This document shows positions 130 through 59,143 of a stretch of DNA of 64,000 nucleotides, piece after piece (within the stretch, counting starts at the first letter, position 1; every line of letters starts with the position of its first letter). Under the pieces are notes generated by a model, which searched no databases, had not been told where the DNA came from, and was given only the letters and a program-made list of their open reading frames with translations. The position numbers and the translations under genes were made by a program. The stretch lies in assembly GCA_000165345.1 (NCBI GenBank), contig CM000434.1:224001-288000 (forward strand), written 5' to 3'.

Positions 130-202
130 TACGGGTTACGAGGATCGAACTCGTGATCTCTCGCGTGTTAGGCGAGCGTCATAGCCACTAGACCAAACCC
201 GC
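130..202 (-). tRNA. tRNA-Val(AAC), 73 nt
   Basis: The minus-strand sequence GCGGGTT-TG-GTCT..ATGAC-G-CTCGC-CTAACAC-GCGAG-AGATC-ACGAG-TTCGATC-CTCGT-AACCCGT-A folds as a cloverleaf. The anticodon arm CGCCTAACACGCG is identical to eukaryotic tRNA-Val(AAC). TTCGATC is the T-loop, and a T6 run lies about 30 nt downstream on the minus strand (A-run at 93-99 on plus). Confidence 0.8.
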
Positions 203-12184: not shown

Positions 12185-13497
12185 ATGTTGGATTCAATAA
12201 ATCCTGCATCATCCTATTACTCAAAAAGGATTGAGCATTTAAAAATTTTGATTGATTCAAAAAAATTGGATATACGTAGATTACATGCACAGAGAAATGA
12301 ACTAAATTCCAAAGGTAAGTTGATTTTCTTTAAAACTTATTTCAATTATGTGAATATACTTAACTTAATAATGTTAATGATTTTAGTTAAAGAACTCAAG
12401 GATGAATTACAATATCTATTGGAATCTAATAGTTATGTTGGAGAAGTTATAAAGGTAATGGGAAGAAATAAAGTATTGGTAAAGTTAAATCCAGAAGGAA
12501 AGTTTCTGGTTGATGTTTCTAAGAATATTGATATTTCAAAATGTACTACAAATACTAGGTAAGTAAAAATGAATTACAAAATAACCTTAAAATATTTGAA
12601 CTTTTTTATTATTTTAGAGTTGCATTATTGAGCGATTCATTTAAGCTTCACCGTATATTTCCTAACAAAGTAGATCCTTTGGTATCTTTAATGAAGGTTG
12701 AAAAAGTTCCAGATAGTACATATGATATGGTTGGTGGACTTGATGAACAGATTAAAGAAATTAAGGAGGTAATAGAACTTCCAATAAAACATCCTGAGAT
12801 ATTTGAAAGTTTGGGAATTGCTCAACCGAAAGGAGTTCTATTATATGGTCCACCAGGTACTGGTAAGACTTTATTAGCAAGAGCTGTTGCTCATCATACA
12901 GATTGTACTTTTATTAGAGTATCTGGTTCTGAGCTTGTTCAAAAATATATTGGAGAAGGAAGTAGAATGGTTAGAGAGTTATTTGTTATGGCTAGAGAAC
13001 ATGCTCCATCTTTAATTTTTATGGATGAAATTGACTCAATAGGATCACAAAGAACAGAAGGGGAAAGTGGTGACAGTGAAGTACAGAGGACAATGCTTGA
13101 ACTTTTAAACCAATTGGATGGTTTTGAGTCAACACAAAACATTAAGATTATTATGGCAACCAATAGAATTGACATATTAGATGATGCTCTTCTTAGACCT
13201 GGTCGTATTGATAGAAAGATAGAGTTCCCAAATCCAAATGAAGATGCTAGATTAGAAATTCTCAAGATTCATAGTAGAAAGATGAACTTAGTTAGAGGAA
13301 TTGACTTAAGAAAGGTAGCTCAACAGATGCAAGGAGCATCTGGTGCTGAATCTAAAGCAGTTTGTACTGAAGCTGGAATGTTTGCTTTAAGAGAGAGAAG
13401 GAAACATGTTACTCAAGAGGACTTCGATATGGCAGTTTCCAGGGTAATGAAAAAAGATAGTGATTGGAATATGAGTTTGAAGAAGTTATGGAAGTAA
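12185..13497 (+). CDS. RPT6: 26S proteasome regulatory AAA-ATPase subunit Rpt6 (PSMC5/Sug1 orthologue). Three exons: join(12185..12314,12387..12558,12618..13497), about 393 aa
   Basis: Exon 3 aligns almost residue for residue with human PSMC5 ([121 protein letters not shown]...). Intron 1 has donor AAAG|GTAAGT at 12315 and acceptor TTTTAG| at 12386, and is phase 1. Intron 2 has donor AG|GTAAGT at 12559 and acceptor TTTTAG| at 12617, and is phase 2. The spliced junctions give ...[14 protein letters not shown]... and ...[12 protein letters not shown]..., matching the human order. The track ORF 12628 starts at TTG because it lies inside exon 3. Confidence 0.85.
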
Positions 13498-20162: not shown

Positions 20163-22363
20163 TTAAGAAACAGACTTCCAAATAAACGATCCATCTGGTC
20201 TGTCCTCCAAAGTAATTTTCAATTTGGAGAGTTGTACATCTCTTACTTGGTCACATTTAGAAAGTAGAGATATTGATGACTTATTCACTTCATCGATAAG
20301 GCTTCCTACATTACCAAAATCATTGTTTGAAATTGCCTTCTTTTCTTTTCTGCATAATCCCATAAGTTTCTTAGATTCCTCCTTGGCACAACTTCTAAAT
20401 CCTCCAATAATCTCCATGAATTCATTAGTGAGTTCTTCTACTTTGGAGTTATCATAAGCAGAATCGCAAGTGTCTTTGTAATTAAGCTTTTCATTATCTT
20501 CACCACATAAACCAAGTATCGATAAAATCTTGTAAACATATGTGGCACAACGTCTTAAGATATTTCCAACAATCTGATCATCTGATTTTAAGTTCATGTA
20601 ACTATTTGCAACAGTAACAAGAGACTGAAGTGCTTGAATAACTTCTGGAGTATTTATATTGTCTTTAAAGAATTCATCAATCTAAAAAGAAAAAAAAAAT
20701 TAAATTAATTTTAATGTTCGACAAAAAGTTCATTTAGAAGTAGGAAAAAAAAGTTACTGAGTTCTTCGTTACTCTTTACTCCAAACTTCCTATTCTCCAC
20801 TCTAATGTATATATCTCCCCAATAAATTAAATCATAAACTGTTCAAAAAAGAAAAAAAGAGATTGAACATTTTAGATTTAATGAGAATGTTCGTGACGGT
20901 ATTTTAAGATGTATTTCTACAATGAAAAAAAATACATTATAAATATACCAACATGAAAGAGTACACGTGTCAATGCATGCATGCATGCACAACATTTGTA
21001 CTCTAATTAGTATAGCAAGCTCTTAGTGCCTAAAAAAGCTATGAATAGAAAAGCTTCAAGGAGTGGAATCTTGCATATTACCAAATCAAGATGGGGGGAA
21101 AAAATACAATAAGAGTAGATTATATTGTAAACTTACCTTTTCACTGGAAGATTCAATTGCAAGCCTGAGTTTCTCTTCTTCGATATCATGTTTCTGTGAG
21201 TTTTTCAAGTAGGACGTCCTAAGGCGTGCTTTAACATTAGCAAAAAAGTTGACAAAGGTTTTGTCAACAGCAATAGCTTCTTGTAAAGAAGTTTCTGGTG
21301 AGTAATTCATAGGTGCATCCCATTTATGGAGAAGGAAAAGCATCCTAATGTGTCTGGGTGAGTTTTCCTTAAGGATTTCCTGAATAGTAGTAAAGTTTTT
21401 AAGACTTTTAGACATCTTGGATCCGTGAATATGAAGATGACCAGAATGAAGGAAGTAGTTAACCCACTGGGCTTGATCATAATGAGCCTCACTTTGAGCA
21501 AGCTCATTATCATGATGAGGGAATCTCAAGTCAATACCTCCACTGTGAATGTCAATTGGGAATCCAAGAGTATTTGAAGCCATGACAGAACATTCAATAT
21601 GCCATCCTGGTCTACCTTTTCCCCAAGGACTATCCCAACAAGGCTCCTCAGGCTTTGCTTTCTTCCAAAGAGCAAAATCCAAAGGACTCTTCTTATCCTT
21701 AAGATGTTCTCCAAGTTCACCTTCACCTTCTAATACTCTATTAACATCAGCAACACTCTTTGGCTCCATTCTTCCATATACATGCTTTTCATCAGCTCTG
21801 AATGATTCTACATCAAAGTAAACACTTCCTTCTGATTCATAAGCAAAACCTCTAGAAATAATTGTAGAGATAAAATCAATAATTTCAGGAATAAATTCAG
21901 ATACCCTTGTAACAACATCCGGCATCTTAACATTTAAAGCCTTCATATCATCAAAGAATTCAAGTTCAAATTCTCTAGCCAAATCTAAAAAGTTTTCTCT
22001 TTTTTGCTCATTAGATCTCTTAATGATTTTATCATCAATATCTGTAATGTTCATAACCAAATAAACATCATACCCAAAGTAATCCTCTAATACTCTCCTA
22101 ATTATGTCAAAAGTTACATAATTTCTAGCATGGCCTAAATGAGCTGAGTCATATACTGTAGGACCACATGCATACCAGTTCACTCTTCTACCATTCACTG
22201 GTATAAATTCTGTCCTCCCTCCTGTCATACTATTATTAAGCATTAATCCTGTCGAATAAGAACATCTCTTTGATGCAGAACTCGTATCACCTGATTCTGC
22301 ATTAGAAAAACATCTTGTTGGTGGGATCCAATCTGCCATTCCTTCTGCTGTATTTAAACCCAT
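20163..22363 (-). CDS. Cysteinyl-tRNA synthetase (class I). Two exons: join(complement(21137..22363),complement(20163..20681)), about 581 aa
   Basis: Exon 1 carries [21 protein letters not shown] (HIGH motif) and [14 protein letters not shown] (KMSKS). It ends ...AIESSSEK with donor AAG|GTAAGT (plus-strand acttac at 21131-21136). The acceptor (T)10CTTTTTAG|ATTGATGAATTC has its AG as plus-strand ct at 20682-20683. Both junctions are phase 0 and in frame with ORF 20163..20597. Exon 2 ([29 protein letters not shown]...) aligns with the human CARS region downstream of KMSKS ([26 protein letters not shown]). Confidence 0.8.
20975..20989. repeat. (GCAT)n tetranucleotide repeat, i.e. overlapping GCATGCA boxes, inside the CysRS intron
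   Basis: gcatgcatgcatgca, read directly. Confidence 0.9.
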
Positions 22364-42433: not shown

Positions 42434-43408
<975 letters not shown>

Positions 43409-51874: not shown

Positions 51875-54328
51875 ATGAGATTTATACCATTCTCCATTAT
51901 ATGGCTATTCTACCTATTTTTTGGGCCATGTTTAGGTTTAAGAGCAAATACTACTCATAAGTTAGCAATAGATCAATTCCTTGGAGATCTAAGTTCTGAA
52001 AACCTTCAAATTTTAGAATATGACTTTATTTTTAGTAAATTAAAAGACATTAATGGAGATGTCAATGATTTACTAAAATCAATGTCTCAAAAAGAAAATT
52101 TGAAATATACTCTTCAAAAATATAAGACAAAGATTAAGAATATTGCAGAAGCTTTGTCTATTGAGATAAAAGACTCTTTAGATTCCCACTTAAATTTATT
52201 AGATAATTTGAATAATAAATTTCAGGAAATTAATATTGAAATTGTTAAAAAAGACTTTATATCAAAACAAGATAATATTTACCAACAGAATCTATTAAAT
52301 TATTTGAACAAACAATCTTTTAATAAAAGTATCCAATTCCTTGAAAAATCTGATATAGATAATAAGGAGGAGTTGATCAATCAATTAAAAAATTTACTAT
52401 ATTCAAGACACGAGAGTCAAAATGGTATTTTGGATAAAATAATCATTTTACATAAACTTGCTATTGAAATTGAACTCACTAAAATTGTTTATTTATACTC
52501 TAAGAATCAAACAGAATCGCGTGAATTTGAAAGCAAACTACAGAAATTTGTGAAAATGTTGCATTTATTGGCAAATTTTGAGCTATTTCTAAATGGATGC
52601 TTTAATTCTCCTTATGAAATCTCCATTACCAAAATTATTAATTTAAGCCAAAATTATGAAACAACAAGTTCTACAGATACTAGATTTGTTATTTATCCAA
52701 ATTTACTATTTGAACAAGAGATATGTGATCTTTCCATAATAAATCAAAATGAAAAGGACATTTTAAGTAAAAGTGAAAAAACTATTACACCTGTTACTAA
52801 TCAACAAGAGTTTTGTACAAATTCTTATGAATCTAATGAAAATATATCATTCAACCAATCAGAGGTTTTGAATCAAGTAAAAGTCAGTAATGAAAGTTCT
52901 TTATTACTGAATGATAAAAATGATTCATTGTTTGACTTTAATTCCCTCAAAAGTGTTAAACAAAACGAAGTATTTAATCAAATTTACAATGATAATCAAT
53001 TTAAAGTAGAAATCGATATAATTTCTCCCATTCTTAGTGTTGAATCAAATAAATCACCTAGAATTGGAGATTATATAATTAATAATGATTTTAATCAATA
53101 TTCTGCAAACAAGTCTCACGATTCTATTAGGAATACTCGTGAGACATTTAAAATTAATGATGAAGAAGTAAAGTCACATATGAATAATATACGTATTAAA
53201 CAAATGCATAAAAATACAATTATAGATAAAAGAAAAAATTACAAAGATTCAAAATTGGACTTAGCATCATTAAGAAAATGTTTTGAATATCAATATGTTT
53301 GTTTACTAGCCAGACATTTGGAAGATGACGAAATTTTGGAGCTAGACAGTTACTTATTTTCTTATGGAGTTAAATTACCTCTAGAAAAGGATTCTAATTT
53401 AATTTGGTCAATTTCAGAAAGCTTAGTTGATAATTTTGGTGCAAGAAAAAGGCTAATTGAACACGTCTCACAGAAAATTATTGATTTTACTTTGTCTATA
53501 GGCCGATTAAATACTGATCCTTTAATGAATACTGGAAATCAAAGGAATGATCAAATAGGGTTTTACAGGGAAAAACACATCGATATTCTTTCAATTTTAA
53601 TTGCTTTAAGGGAATTCTTAAATTCTAAAAATTCAGAAGAAATTTCTACAGCCAGAATAAATTTTATTGATAAATTTGTACCTTTAATTAAACGTCATTC
53701 AAACAAAAAAATCAAATTTTCTAAAAATTCAGAAACAAACAAAAAAAAAAGTCAATTTGACTTATCAAGTTATCATGCCAGCAGTAGATTTATAAAACTA
53801 AGAGACTCATTCGATAATGATGGTGAATCAAAATATAATTCAGAAAATGGATTACTACCTACAAATATTAGTGAGACAATAAGTGAACCAAGTCTTTATG
53901 AGCTATGTACTAGATTTATCACAACTCTATCAATTACCAAGTCAGTTAAAAGTTTCAATGATAATTCCTATAAGTTTGCTCAAAAAGTTTGCTCAATGAT
54001 TTTTGAACAACCTATTCATAATATCTTAAGTAGTCAAGATTATGCATGGCTTACTGGATTTACTTTGGTTAGAACAGTAAATTATTTAATCAAAAAACAA
54101 AATCTTCCTGAAGAAATTTTTATTGATCATGAAAATGCGCTTAGAGCTCTAAACTATTCATTCTCACAAAAAGTTTACAATTTTCATCAAGCATGTACAC
54201 AATCTCTTATTTCTCAAAAAAGTACCGCTATTTATCGAAATAATATTTCATTACATTTAATTAAACCTTTGATGAAAATATCATGCGCAGAATATTTTGG
54301 AATTAGCGTATTTTTATATGAAAATTAG
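51875..54328 (+). CDS. Secreted Asn/Ser-rich hypothetical protein, 817 aa
   Basis: The N-terminus is a signal peptide (MRFIPFSIIWLFYLFFGPCLG). The protein is long and low-complexity but non-repetitive. The ATG is confirmed. Confidence 0.6.
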   Translation: MRFIPFSIIWLFYLFFGPCLGLRANTTHKLAIDQFLGDLSSENLQILEYDFIFSKLKDINGDVNDLLKSMSQKENLKYTLQKYKTKIKNIAEALSIEIKDSLDSHLNLLDNLNNKFQEINIEIVKKDFISKQDNIYQQNLLNYLNKQSFNKSIQFLEKSDIDNKEELINQLKNLLYSRHESQNGILDKIIILHKLAIEIELTKIVYLYSKNQTESREFESKLQKFVKMLHLLANFELFLNGCFNSPYEISITKIINLSQNYETTSSTDTRFVIYPNLLFEQEICDLSIINQNEKDILSKSEKTITPVTNQQEFCTNSYESNENISFNQSEVLNQVKVSNESSLLLNDKNDSLFDFNSLKSVKQNEVFNQIYNDNQFKVEIDIISPILSVESNKSPRIGDYIINNDFNQYSANKSHDSIRNTRETFKINDEEVKSHMNNIRIKQMHKNTIIDKRKNYKDSKLDLASLRKCFEYQYVCLLARHLEDDEILELDSYLFSYGVKLPLEKDSNLIWSISESLVDNFGARKRLIEHVSQKIIDFTLSIGRLNTDPLMNTGNQRNDQIGFYREKHIDILSILIALREFLNSKNSEEISTARINFIDKFVPLIKRHSNKKIKFSKNSETNKKKSQFDLSSYHASSRFIKLRDSFDNDGESKYNSENGLLPTNISETISEPSLYELCTRFITTLSITKSVKSFNDNSYKFAQKVCSMIFEQPIHNILSSQDYAWLTGFTLVRTVNYLIKKQNLPEEIFIDHENALRALNYSFSQKVYNFHQACTQSLISQKSTAIYRNNISLHLIKPLMKISCAEYFGISVFLYEN

Positions 54329-54455
54329 ATAATTATATTCAATTATTATTTCGTTCTAATTATATCTAAAATAGAAATGTCGGTATTCCTTCTCTTTTCC
54401 CCTAATACTTCTTTGATTTTTAATATTCTTAATATATTGCGCCCGTTACCTAGAT

Positions 54456-54529
54456 GGCTGGATGGCCGAGTGGACTAAGGCGCAGCATTCAGGTTGCTGT
54501 TTTCAGGGGTTCGAATCCCCTTTCAGTCA
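54456..54529 (+). tRNA. tRNA-Leu(CAG)-like gene, 74 nt, with an atypically short variable region
   Basis: The acceptor is GGCTGGA/TTCAGTC (two G-U pairs) with discriminator A. The class-II-style D-arm is GCC-GAGTGGACTAA-GGC. The anticodon arm is CAGCA-TTCAGGT-TGCTG (anticodon CAG, G37). The T-arm is AGGGG-TTCGAAT-CCCCT. A T5 run follows immediately downstream. The gene resembles human tRNA-Leu-CAG (GTCAGGATGGCCGAGCGGTCTAAGGCGCTGCGTTCAGGTCGCAG...) but only TTTTC (5 nt) sits where the long variable arm should be. Confidence 0.6.
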
Positions 54530-54643
54530 CTTTTTCCTATAATAAAAAAAAAATTAAATTGGCACTGAGGATCAGTAAAAAACGGAATGAACAGAGATAT
54601 GAATAATAATACTCAATTTATTTTGATAACAGATATCTAACAT

Positions 54644-56470
54644 CTAGAGTCTATCAAAAGTAGAGTATAAACCAAGCAGACCATATGTCTGCAAACAGAC
54701 AACTTTTAGAATTTCTTCATTATTCTGAAATTTATGGAAATTGTTTTCTCCAAGTAAAAGTCGTTTTACCTGGATAAAACATTGCTTTGGTCTGTCCAAA
54801 GGATTATTATTTCTATTTCTGACAATAACTTCATTAGTCTTTAATATTTTGTCGTTTTCTCCGAATGAAAAATGCTTTACAAGCAAGAAATTGAAGAAAA
54901 CATTATCTCTGTAAAACATTTGTTTATTAGTATCATTAATTTCCTTCTGAATGACAATTTTTTGCACTTGTAAATCATCTTCTGAATAGAAGATGATCAT
55001 AGTTACAATTTCCAATTTTAAATTGAAAATTGGACTAGTCAGTTTTGGATCTGATTTATTAATAATTAAATTTAACATAAATCTGGTAAAGTCTGATTTA
55101 TAGTAGAGTCTCCTTTCTTGAATGTAATCAAATTTGGCAAAATATTGTTCAAAAACGTATTTCATTGAAGCAAAGTTAATGTAATTTCCAAAAAATGAAT
55201 GTAATTTGGAAATTCCATTTTTACCATTGATTATTTCAACAACTTTCTCGAGATTATCCTCCAAAGTTGAATAAACAACCAAATATTCATAAATTGCCAA
55301 GTATAAAAGCTTTGTTTTTGTGGGAGTAAAATAACTCTTCAATTCTTTATTTTCTGTTTGAATGAACCTATATGTTAAAGTTTCTGAAATATTGTACAAG
55401 GAAATTCCAGAAATTTCATTTTTAATTTTTAAGTTAATTTGATTTTCACTTCGAGTTGACCTAAGGGACTTTGATCTTGAACGAGAACTGGTTATTTCTG
55501 AATCACTTACTTCCTTAAGACCACGCATCTCCACCTTTTTGTTGTTAATTTCCTTTTCTGTTTCTCTTAATGCTTCCTTGAGCTCAGAATTAGAAAGATT
55601 TCGTTCCTCTATAGAATCATAGCTTATAATAGACTCACTTTCATTTTTTAAGGCTTCCAATATTTCATCAAAAATTGAAGCTTTATCATTTATTTCAATT
55701 TTGAAGCTGATATTGTCATCTTTAGATTGAACAATTTCTGTGATATTAAATCCGTCCAATTTTGAAGAATTATTATTTTCAAATAATTCTTCAAAGTTAT
55801 TCTGGATTTCAGCTTCTAATTCCTTAAATTTACTTTTCTTTTTTCCACAGCAAGATGATTTTTTTTCTTCAGTGTTATCCACTAATTTTTCTAATACTTC
55901 TAAATCTGTCCCATCAGGTTTTTGAAGAGGAATCTCACAGTTTTCTGAGGCTTTATTTGCATCTCCCTGATCAACATCAAATAAGAACTCTGATTCAGAT
56001 TTTACTTCACTTCTTTGCATCAGTCTTCTGCTGGATGGCTGCTGCTGGAATTCGTAGCTTCCAGATTTTAATTCAATACAATTATCTTTTAAAAATGCTA
56101 TATCATTGACTTTACTTTTTATGATATAATCAATAACTTCATTCTTACAAAAAAATAGCATCTTTTCTTTGTTACCCAATAAATCACCTACCAATTCTTC
56201 AATTTTCTCGTTTGCCATGATTACAATGAAGTTGAAAGTTGAGTTTTCGATAGGTAAAGGCTCGTGACCAGATTTTTCTGTTCCATTGGACACACGTTCT
56301 GTTAGTGAGACAGCTATCTTCTCATAATCATAGAAATCTTCGCCAGATATTAAACTTTTCTTGGAAATTACATTATTAATCTTATGTGCAGTAACATTTG
56401 TAAGTGATAAACTAGAAAGTACACTAAATAATAAACCCAAAATGAAAAATTTGAATACCTTAAATCTCAT
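54644..56470 (-). CDS. Secreted hypothetical protein, 608 aa
   Basis: The N-terminus is a signal peptide (MRFKVFKFFILGLLFSVLSSLSLT). The ATG is confirmed. A TTGGCGGGTAACGATTGTGTG box at 56551 lies about 80 bp upstream on the gene strand. Confidence 0.6.
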   Translation of the reverse strand: MRFKVFKFFILGLLFSVLSSLSLTNVTAHKINNVISKKSLISGEDFYDYEKIAVSLTERVSNGTEKSGHEPLPIENSTFNFIVIMANEKIEELVGDLLGNKEKMLFFCKNEVIDYIIKSKVNDIAFLKDNCIELKSGSYEFQQQPSSRRLMQRSEVKSESEFLFDVDQGDANKASENCEIPLQKPDGTDLEVLEKLVDNTEEKKSSCCGKKKSKFKELEAEIQNNFEELFENNNSSKLDGFNITEIVQSKDDNISFKIEINDKASIFDEILEALKNESESIISYDSIEERNLSNSELKEALRETEKEINNKKVEMRGLKEVSDSEITSSRSRSKSLRSTRSENQINLKIKNEISGISLYNISETLTYRFIQTENKELKSYFTPTKTKLLYLAIYEYLVVYSTLEDNLEKVVEIINGKNGISKLHSFFGNYINFASMKYVFEQYFAKFDYIQERRLYYKSDFTRFMLNLIINKSDPKLTSPIFNLKLEIVTMIIFYSEDDLQVQKIVIQKEINDTNKQMFYRDNVFFNFLLVKHFSFGENDKILKTNEVIVRNRNNNPLDRPKQCFIQVKRLLLGENNFHKFQNNEEILKVVCLQTYGLLGLYSTFDRL

Positions 56471-56920: not shown

Positions 56921-59143
56921 TTACAACATTCCAAACTGGTTTTGATTGTTCAATAGAAATTGACCATAAAGTAGAGATTGATTATTGTTAACGCTTTGCA
57001 AAAAGGCTGAACTGTCAAAAAAGTTATTCAAGCTCGGCTGTCTAAAATTAAGGCTATGTTTTAAGTTATCTGCAGTCATTGGCTGTACGAAAGGGATCCC
57101 TTCATTATAGTTAATGCTAGATAAAGTTTGATAGCCAGACCTTAGAACACCATTATTGATGATCTGCTTGATTTGCTGGGAAACTGAAATAAATTCAGTC
57201 AGTTCAGTTAAACTAAAACTGTCCATCTTTTCACGCAGCGTTGAATCAAGAAGATTTTTTGCTGTCTTTTTACCCTCATCCTCGATAAAAGATTTGCCAT
57301 CGCTTAATGGCGATTCATGATAAGCTTCATTGTTTATTGCCATAACCTTTTGAAGAACAGCTATGCTGTTTGAGATTGTTGGACGTATTTGGGACACGTC
57401 ACAATTGAATTTAAATACGTTCAGTTTGCATGCGAGAACTAATGTTAGTGATTCAATCTCACCAAATTCCATCGAACCAAAAAATTTCTCTGCATATCCG
57501 TCGAGGCATAATTTCCAGCCTTTGTTGCGATTATCATAGTAAATTCCCTTCCACAGGCCCTCAGAGTCAGATAGGGCATTGCTTATGATATCTTTGAGCA
57601 TCAGCTGGGAGTCATTGTTATAAGAAACAATTCCCATACTCGGATTAATAATTGGAGTGGAAGGAACAATATTTGGAGAATTTACACAAGTCGTAAAATT
57701 CGTTCCATATTGTTGAGCTGGTGGTTGAGGAGTAGCTACCTTAGAGAAACAATGGATTGGAAGTCCCGTTGTTCCCTGTAAATTAACTGCGTTCCTAACA
57801 TTCATCATGGTACTTGCGAATAAATTATTCGCAATAATTTGATTCACAAGAATGTTATTAAGGATATTGTTAGTTATGTAATGAGAGAGTAATTGACTGT
57901 TGACATCTAAGTCTCCCTGAGAGGGAAACGATAATAGATTATTTAAATTTCCATTTAAAGGAACGGAGTCAGTGTTAAGTGGTTTGAATGATCCATCGAT
58001 ATAATTGTTGCATATCCTACTATTCGAACTAATATTCTTAAAAATATTGGTTCCATTTACAGAAGCACTATCGGTAATCTGGCTTTCAAGGCTCTTTTGT
58101 CCAGAAATTTGTCGTTCAAACAACTCATTCTGGCCGTCCTTTGAAAGGATTGGAGATACCTGATTATCGGATTTTCCATCTAATCTACGAGAGTTCTCAG
58201 AATTCCTGGCTGATTTTGAATCATTCCCAAAGTTTCCAATAATGTTAACTTGATAGAACCTAAGAGCCATTTCATACGACTTTTCAACTCCATATCTTTT
58301 TGCGGAGAAATACCTTGAAATTTCGGTTTGTCTTTTGCGAATACGTACCTGCCAACCATGATTCCTCCGGTCATAGTATATTCCTTTGAGAGATAGGCTA
58401 CGAAAGCCTTTGTTTGTAAGGCTAATTGCCTTGTCAAGATCCTGTGCGCTAATTCCTCCACTATTACTACTGCTACTCGCCCCTACTCCACCATGAGAAC
58501 TGCTACCACTAAGTTTGTTCTTACTAGTCCTTACAGCCCTTTCTCTTTTGGTTTGGAGAGGTTTCTGTACGGAACTATCGGATATAGTCGTTTTAATGAT
58601 ACCAGTTAGATGTTCCTCATCAATAGTTTGAATTAACGATGAACTAGACTGAGAAGTAGGGAATGCGTCAGTCATAGAGGAAGAAGAAACGGTGGATGAG
58701 CCTGAACTGGATAATTCCGTAAAATCTGTCGGGTTCAGTTCTTCTGACAAACCACCATTATATCCAGAACTGATAAGCTCTTCCTCATTAGATTTATTCT
58801 GATCTAACCTAAAATCAGAGCCTATAGATTCAAGCAGTTCTGTTAAATTTGGATTGTTAGTTTGAACTTCGGGTGTGGTTTGATAAGGAATTCGGTTTGC
58901 GAAAGCTATCATCGAATGTTGTAAATACGGAAGATTTGGGTTCAAAGCTACCGGAAGTTTATTCAAGGTCTGCTGTAAATACGGATTGAGATCGTTACTG
59001 AGGGATATGTTTGGAGAGCTACCTGTATTAGCTATTCTATTTGATGCAGCGAATGATGATGCTGAACTTGATGAGCTGCTTGTTCCACAATTGATACTTG
59101 GTAAATAGCCGTTGTAAAAATGTTGCATTCTCTGGAATCCCAT
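56921..59143 (-). CDS. ApiAP2 transcription factor with two AP2 DNA-binding domains, 740 aa
   Basis: AP2 domain 1 is KGIYYDRRNHGWQVRIRKRQTEISRYFSAKRYGVEKSYEMALRFYQ (DNA about 58250-58410). AP2 domain 2 is KGIYYDNRNKGWKLCLDGYAEKFFGSMEFGEIESLTLVLACKLN (DNA about 57405-57560). Both follow the apicomplexan AP2 pattern GV.YD...W.A.W....R.F....G.E.A...A. The remainder is low-complexity S/N-rich sequence. Confidence 0.8.
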   Translation of the reverse strand: MGFQRMQHFYNGYLPSINCGTSSSSSSASSFAASNRIANTGSSPNISLSNDLNPYLQQTLNKLPVALNPNLPYLQHSMIAFANRIPYQTTPEVQTNNPNLTELLESIGSDFRLDQNKSNEEELISSGYNGGLSEELNPTDFTELSSSGSSTVSSSSMTDAFPTSQSSSSLIQTIDEEHLTGIIKTTISDSSVQKPLQTKRERAVRTSKNKLSGSSSHGGVGASSSSNSGGISAQDLDKAISLTNKGFRSLSLKGIYYDRRNHGWQVRIRKRQTEISRYFSAKRYGVEKSYEMALRFYQVNIIGNFGNDSKSARNSENSRRLDGKSDNQVSPILSKDGQNELFERQISGQKSLESQITDSASVNGTNIFKNISSNSRICNNYIDGSFKPLNTDSVPLNGNLNNLLSFPSQGDLDVNSQLLSHYITNNILNNILVNQIIANNLFASTMMNVRNAVNLQGTTGLPIHCFSKVATPQPPAQQYGTNFTTCVNSPNIVPSTPIINPSMGIVSYNNDSQLMLKDIISNALSDSEGLWKGIYYDNRNKGWKLCLDGYAEKFFGSMEFGEIESLTLVLACKLNVFKFNCDVSQIRPTISNSIAVLQKVMAINNEAYHESPLSDGKSFIEDEGKKTAKNLLDSTLREKMDSFSLTELTEFISVSQQIKQIINNGVLRSGYQTLSSINYNEGIPFVQPMTADNLKHSLNFRQPSLNNFFDSSAFLQSVNNNQSLLYGQFLLNNQNQFGML

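Follow-up and report, generated by a model that had tools for sequence, protein, structure and literature searches.

Cryptosporidium carries a 74-nt tRNA-Leu(CAG) gene of class-I shape, without the long variable arm, which we located at 54456..54529 (+) in the window (the whole 64,000-nucleotide stretch of DNA that was analysed) using ARAGORN, Rfam and a minimum-free-energy (MFE) fold, and followed across ten taxa. The reading that we favour as probable is that the gene is nuclear, single-copy and functional and encodes a cytosolic tRNA-Leu(CAG) whose class-II arm was lost by a precise deletion in an ancestor of Cryptosporidium, so that a 5-nt loop remains on an otherwise typical leucine body. 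A nuclear, cytosolic armless tRNA-Leu found genus-wide would be a natural counter-example to the long-arm rule. It would also serve as a natural experiment for asking how the substrate is recognised by a eukaryotic LeuRS, whether the arm acts as determinant or chiefly as anti-determinant, and how modification enzymes that depend on the arm manage in its absence.

Structure and surroundings of the armless tRNA gene

ARAGORN called a tRNA-Leu with anticodon CAG at 54456-54530 (+), and Rfam RF00005 matched 54456-54529 with 54.9 bits (gathering score 29, E=4.5e-9), covering the model end to end (1-71/71). The MFE fold of the 74 nt is a cloverleaf, with a weak z-score against shuffles (-1.69). The 5′ strand of the acceptor stem, GGCUGGA (54456..54462, +), pairs with UUCAGUC (54522-54528), pairs 1:72 to 7:66 being standard in all taxa, and the window copy contains two wobbles, G2-U71 and G6-U67. 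U8, G9 and G26 can be read directly from the sequence. The Leu-type D arm, GCCG-AGUGGACUA-AGGC (54465..54481, +), has a stem of three Watson-Crick pairs together with G13/A22, and its loop holds two additional bases following G19. The anticodon arm (54483..54499, +) consists of the stem CAGCA/UGCUG, in which two pairs show compensatory changes, and the loop UUCAGGU, which is invariant, with the anticodon CAG at 54490-54492 and G37 at 54493 unchanged in all ten taxa. The T arm AGGGG-UUCGAAU-CCCCU (54505..54521, +) is invariant in all taxa, as is the discriminator A73 (54529, +), the main leucine identity element.

Only UUUUC (positions 44-48; 54500..54504, +) separates the anticodon stem from the T stem, in place of the 13-15 nt class-II arm, and a variable region of 5 nt leaves no room for a long arm to fold. 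In all ten taxa this region is 5 nt long, below the 10 nt or more of a class-II variable arm and within the 4-5 nt that define class I (PMC3333845). Judged on its sequence, the tRNA is a member of the tRNA-Leu lineage, both in its descent and in most of its determinants, and fails the defining feature of class II.

The signals expected of a type-2 Pol III gene can all be recognised at the sequence level. An A-box-like element, TGGCCGAGTGG (54463..54473, +), fits TRGYNNARNNG and is invariant in all taxa, a B-box-like element, GGTTCGAATCC (54508-54518, +), fits RGTTCRANTCC and is likewise invariant (both consensus motifs from PMC11028032), and a terminator-like T5 run (54531..54535, +) follows A73 after a single C.

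The gene lies in the 315 bp gap between two convergent open-reading frames, 51875..54328 (+) and 54644..56470 (-), in a window of ca. 30% G+C whose open-reading frames are long and intron-poor. The upstream neighbour (817 aa) is a signal-peptide-containing protein with 99% identity to one from C. parvum; a protein search with this product returned four matches and gained no further taxa. The downstream neighbour (608 aa) is syntenic in all loci fetched. Both proteins have hydrophobic, signal-peptide-like N-termini and homologues named ‘signal peptide-containing protein’. Another window gene is 93% identical to its C. meleagridis match in a protein search, and these matches assign the window to Cryptosporidium, within the parvum/hominis lineage.

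An earlier note on this DNA had described a CAG-type tRNA gene with only TTTTC where the long arm should be, a T5 run that gave it the look of a Pol III unit, and a position between two convergent secreted-protein genes. Its coordinates are exact and coincide with the Rfam match, the lack of an arm is borne out by ARAGORN and Rfam and by the MFE fold, and the T run and the two neighbours are where they were said to be. The same note allowed that it might have mis-folded the molecule; this we reject, as three independent methods agree on one cloverleaf with 5 nt between the anticodon and T stems.

Conservation across Cryptosporidium

Orthologous regions were fetched from C. meleagridis (two assemblies), C. 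ubiquitum, chipmunk genotype I, C. canis, C. felis, C. xiaoi, C. ryanae, the gastric C. serpentis and a Cryptosporidium from a Logan assembly. Every locus holds one tRNA(CAG), 74-76 nt long by ARAGORN, between the same two flanking genes, and the ten taxa with the syntenic tRNA include C. serpentis and span the gastric/intestinal split of the genus. The tRNA body has a mean column identity of ~98%, whilst its immediate flanks cannot be aligned between distant species. All body substitutions but one fall in stems and preserve pairing: pair 7:66 changes from A-U to G-C in C. xiaoi and C. ryanae, pair 6:67 is either G-U or G-C, and the anticodon-stem pairs 28:42 and 29:41 are each A-U or G-C depending on the species. 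The sole change outside the stems is in the variable loop, where UUUUC becomes UAUUC in C. xiaoi and C. ryanae, and this loop never exceeds 5 nt. Stem cells were standard-paired in 80/80 cases, with compensatory double changes in three pairs, counts that only four distinct sequences underlie, which makes for a modest statistic with a clear direction; slid controls, in which the 3′ partners were moved by 1-3 columns, gave 31-53% pairing and 0-1 double-change pairs. This pattern of substitution shows the RNA fold to be under purifying selection across Cryptosporidium.

A run of at least four T's within 10 nt downstream of the tRNA was found in nine of the ten taxa. The tenth, C. felis (L007, downstream of 6723, - strand), has no run of at least four T's within 40 nt and carries CTTTATTC; termination by Pol III may there depend on a weaker or more distant signal. 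Upstream of the tRNA, within window positions 54416-54455, a G+C-rich patch, TTGCGCCCGTTACC (about -26 to -13), stands out from the AT-rich intergenic DNA and is preceded by a TATA-like TTTTTAATAT (about -38 to -29). The two together are conserved in the intestinal species (L001, L003, L005, L006, L017) and absent in C. serpentis; they could be an upstream Pol III promoter/TFIIIB element, or part of the 3′ UTR of the neighbouring gene.

Isotype origin of the tRNA body

The tRNA body was compared with 24 tRNAs, comprising four human tRNA-Leu, three tRNA-Ser and tRNA-His (PMC10359600), tRNA-Leu-CAG and tRNA-Ile (PMC13439101) and further class-I tRNAs. Human tRNA-Leu(CAG) aligned over the full length with a single 10-nt gap placed exactly at the stem-loop of the arm, U44 and C48 being kept, and at 80% identity it was the best of the 24 comparators, followed by Leu-CAA at 78%. 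The Leu and Ser comparators ranged from 66 to 80% identity and the 13 class-I tRNAs from 49 to 62%. The difference is also apparent over positions 8-27, which include the D arm, where human tRNA-Leu matches at 18-19 of 20 positions and class-I tRNAs at 10-15 of 20. Two features separate the molecule from tRNA-Ser: the extra D-loop base that distinguishes most tRNA-Leu from tRNA-Ser is present, and position 73 is A as in tRNA-Leu, where tRNA-Ser has G73. By this comparison the Cryptosporidium tRNA(CAG) is a tRNA-Leu with the arm cleanly removed, and not a chimera.

tRNA inventory and the meaning of CUG

To our knowledge Cryptosporidium has neither a mitochondrial nor a plastid genome, so a nuclear tRNA(CAG) can serve only cytosolic translation. 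A complete eukaryotic anticodon set amounts to about 45-46 genes. Nearly all Cryptosporidium species have 45 tRNA genes, two tRNA-Met among them (PMC8767354), with about one tRNA gene per isoacceptor (PMC10813123). As these published inventories leave almost no room for it, a second, canonical long-arm Leu(CAG) gene elsewhere in the genome is unlikely, and if the 45 genes make up the full anticodon set, a tRNA-Leu(UAG) is probably present as well.

The coding meaning of CUG was assessed in codon alignments of nine orthologue groups across the fetched species. CTG stood opposite a leucine codon in 60.7% of 626 comparisons, within the range of TTA, TTG, CTT, CTC and CTA (56.3-64.1%), and the runners-up opposite CTG (Ile, Phe, Ser and Val) were those of the other leucine codons, whilst each of the control codons (Ser, Ala, Ile, Val, Met and Phe) lined up chiefly with the amino acid it encodes. 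Among the leucine codons CTG is the least used (3.05 per 1000), and it is not specifically avoided: its G/(A+G) ratio relative to CTA is 0.255, and the corresponding ratios are 0.234 for GTG, 0.249 for CAG and 0.263 for GAG. The GC-richer C. felis and Logan species employ CTG more often, at 6.8-7.1 per 1000, and have the same tRNA. In these alignments CUG is shown to behave as a leucine codon, with no sign of reassignment. CUG is known to have been reassigned in the CUG-Ser and CUG-Ala yeasts. We looked in tRNA(CAG) for G3:U70, which confers alanine identity, and for G73 with the arm, which confers serine identity, and both were absent. Reassignment of CUG in Cryptosporidium was rejected on the codon alignments and the codon-usage ratios. 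As tRNA-Leu(UAG) could decode CUG by itself, the codon test is no proof that tRNA(CAG) carries leucine.

Proposed recognition by LeuRS

If the preferred reading is right, Pol III would transcribe the gene and the parasite's single cytosolic LeuRS would charge the product with leucine through the determinants that remain, namely A73, C3:G70, G5:C68, the Leu-type D loop, the tertiary core of G15:C48, G18-G19 and the T loop, and A35/G37. A14, G15:C48, G18G19 and A35 are all kept in the Cryptosporidium tRNA. The charged tRNA would decode CUG, a rare codon at about 3 per 1000, beside the probable tRNA-Leu(UAG), and as loss of the arm removes the element that SerRS needs, it should escape mis-serylation.

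Some published work favours this reading. A73 is a key leucine determinant (PMC9976931, PMC3333845, PMC11028032), and together with the D/T-loop tertiary core it dominates leucine identity in both E. coli and human, where minimal versions of tRNA-Leu are charged even when they lack the arm; differences in arm structure are tolerated, sequence-specific recognition of it being confined to Archaea (PMC9976931). Cryptosporidium has one cytoplasmic LeuRS gene (PMC5038320). Leucylation of tRNA(CAG) by this enzyme, which we infer, would mean that it tolerates, or has adapted to, an armless substrate. If recognition independent of the arm has evolved here, it would be the first such case in a cytosolic LeuRS system of the archaeal/eukaryal type, and would set parasite and host apart at an enzyme of proven value for drug action: in Cryptosporidium, LeuRS has been validated as the target of a benzoxaborole, the drug trapping tRNA-Leu in the editing site (PMC5038320), and parasite-specific tRNA recognition by the enzyme could be exploitable.

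Alternative explanations

The strongest competing view accepts that the tRNA is functional and conserved, and holds that LeuRS charges it poorly or not at all, that another synthetase or a non-decoding role accounts for its retention, and that tRNA-Leu(UAG), which a full anticodon set of 45 genes would by inference include, reads CUG. Under this view, charging by another synthetase would bring ambiguous, low-level decoding of CUG; outside decoding, the tRNA might regulate in its uncharged form, give rise to tRNA fragments or act as donor in some other reaction. Several observations from other organisms favour it. The cytosolic LeuRS of C. elegans suffers a severe loss of leucylation, most of its activity, when the variable arm is completely deleted (PMC3333845), the long arm is among the identity elements of human LeuRS as well as an anti-determinant against non-cognate synthetases (PMC11028032), and the VC-a domain of human LeuRS has been modelled as contacting the arm (PMC7229842); CUG, moreover, is the rarest leucine codon. 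However, armless tRNA-Leu is charged in the minimal E. coli and human systems (PMC9976931), CTG has the substitution profile of the other leucine codons with no other amino acid enriched, the GC-richer species employ CTG twice as often and have the same tRNA, and the anticodon loop, A73, G37 and Leu-type D arm are invariant, as expected under selection for leucine identity and decoding. We consider it unlikely, although worth keeping in view, that the tRNA escapes LeuRS in this way, and on our analysis it is rather improbable that it is not a normal LeuRS substrate, as would be predicted from the arm deletion in C. elegans, and is kept for deliberate low-level ambiguity at CUG through another synthetase, or for a function outside decoding.

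The earlier note had raised a tRNA-Leu pseudogene with an arm deletion. Such a gene would be in decay whilst a canonical copy or tRNA-Leu(UAG) does the work, and the loss of an arm usually held essential and the two G-U wobbles in the acceptor stem of the window copy are in keeping with this. The comparative data do not support it: pseudogene hallmarks (broken pairs, decay or loss in relatives) were sought in the ten taxa and none was found, the gene occupies the same site across the gastric/intestinal split, its changes comprise pair-preserving substitutions and a single variable-loop change whilst the flanks are saturated, neither promoter box (A or B) nor the T run is damaged, and the 45-gene inventories leave a spare copy no room. 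A conserved element acting only as DNA, as a TFIIIC-binding or chromatin-boundary site with no functional RNA, might be suspected from the position between two convergent genes and from the ability of A and B boxes alone to recruit TFIIIC, but it would not account for stem substitutions that preserve pairing, with three compensatory pairs across the taxa. Syntenic retention with pair-preserving changes, set against diverged flanks, speaks strongly against both a decaying pseudogene and a purely DNA-level element; we regard the former as very improbable and the latter as extremely so. A class-I tRNA body whose anticodon mutated to CAG has a precedent in the tRNAscan-SE 2.0 paper, in which seemingly armless ‘Leu’ tRNAs arise from class-I tRNAs with a mutated anticodon, and the variable loop is of class-I length; here, however, the body is closest to human Leu-CAG and Leu-CAA, its D-arm region is that of tRNA-Leu, all 13 class-I comparators are far less similar, and one gap, at the arm, suffices for the alignment to tRNA-Leu. 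An anticodon shift is ruled out against the published human tRNAs and the 13 class-I tRNAs, and we give this origin next to no credence. The earlier note's further suggestion, an unusual type-I tRNA carrying a CAG anticodon with possible implications for the decoding of CUG, holds for the structure, given the 5-nt loop, whereas a changed meaning of CUG is contradicted by the codon alignments and codon usage, and the body is derived from tRNA-Leu.

Comparison with known systems

Human tRNA-Leu-CAG-1-1 (PMC10359600, PMC13439101) shares with the Cryptosporidium tRNA the loop UUCAGGU, A73, G37, C3:G70, G5:C68, the T loop, the A and B boxes, and a D arm with a 3-bp stem, G13/A22 and two extra D-loop bases, the 80% identity between them being over 74 shared positions. 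It differs in having a stem-loop of 13-15 nt where Cryptosporidium has the 5-nt loop, and A-U at pair 4:69 where Cryptosporidium has U-A. According to reviews, the long arm is kept by all tRNA-Leu except those of animal mitochondria, the only armless kind recognised (PMC9976931). The animal mitochondrial tRNAs likewise have a short variable loop and rely on A73, but they are encoded in the organelle, often degenerate, and charged by a bacterial-type mitochondrial LeuRS, whereas the Cryptosporidium tRNA is nuclear, its D and T loops are fully canonical, and a single cytosolic LeuRS of archaeal/eukaryal type has to handle it.

Other departures from the class-II pattern each resemble the Cryptosporidium case in part. 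The human armless ‘Leu’ gene of the tRNAscan-SE 2.0 paper is likewise leucine by anticodon and without a long arm, but it has a tRNA-Met body, is recent in apes and of doubtful function, whereas in Cryptosporidium the body is that of tRNA-Leu and the gene is genus-wide. The nematode nev-tRNAs (PMC3333845) are also Leu-derived and also break the link between class-II shape and a Leu or Ser anticodon, as a mirror image: they kept the arm and changed the anticodon, where Cryptosporidium kept the anticodon and lost the arm. Archaeal and eukaryotic tRNA-Tyr (PMC9976931) represent a class-II family that lost its long arm and kept its amino-acid identity, though in this case the loss is ancient, domain-wide, common to all tRNA-Tyr and accompanied by co-evolution of TyrRS, whilst in Cryptosporidium a single isoacceptor in one genus is known to be affected.

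A degenerate pattern search for short-arm Leu-type tRNAs in viral and metagenome contig collections returned one viral and six metagenome matches (L010:1265-1338(-), L011:1020-1094(+), L012:776-851(-), L013:2479-2553(-), L014:885-959(-), L015:273-348(+) and L016:1660-1734(-)). All share with the Cryptosporidium tRNA a eukaryote-type Leu D arm, an NAG or YAA anticodon, G37, A73 and a variable loop of 5-6 nt. Their anticodons are CAA, UAA or AAG, none of the seven having CAG or a Cryptosporidium-like sequence; most lie in dense tRNA arrays, and their stems are unrelated to those of Cryptosporidium. A Pox_A32 packaging ATPase is encoded on L015, and on this evidence giant viruses are further carriers of short-arm Leu-like tRNAs. 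In L013 and L016 the short-arm tRNA adjoins a normal 83-nt long-arm tRNA-Leu(UAA). The armless Leu-like architecture is rare, but not unique.

A search of the open-access literature found no prior description of an armless Cryptosporidium tRNA-Leu, and the accessible part of a review of non-canonical tRNAs mentions no cytosolic armless tRNA-Leu; genome databases such as GtRNAdb may already flag the gene. Isotype-specific annotation models would probably mark it as aberrant, and annotators should treat it as genuine.

Other features of the window

Two of the open-reading frames are probably pieces of longer genes, intron-containing or mis-started in the mechanical ORF list: an AAA ATPase (12628-13497, +) with a TTG start which spans the ATPase core only, and a class-I CysRS (21086-22363, -; 425 aa) which spans mainly the catalytic domain. 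A 740 aa open-reading frame at 56921-59143 (-) contains two AP2-like motifs recognisable by eye, GIYYD...GWQVRI and GIYYDNRNKGWKL; it has no Pfam match at E<=0.001, its C. serpentis orthologue has only a ‘faint’ AP2 match, and it is probably a divergent ApiAP2 transcription factor. Housekeeping genes were also identified by Pfam. An ordinary class-I cloverleaf, tRNA-Val(AAC), is present at 130-202 (-) (ARAGORN; Rfam 61.4 bits). The gp60/GP40 glycoprotein gene (42434-43408, -; Pfam GP40, E=3.7e-114), which serves as the standard locus for subtyping Cryptosporidium, is some 11 kb away from the armless tRNA-Leu(CAG).
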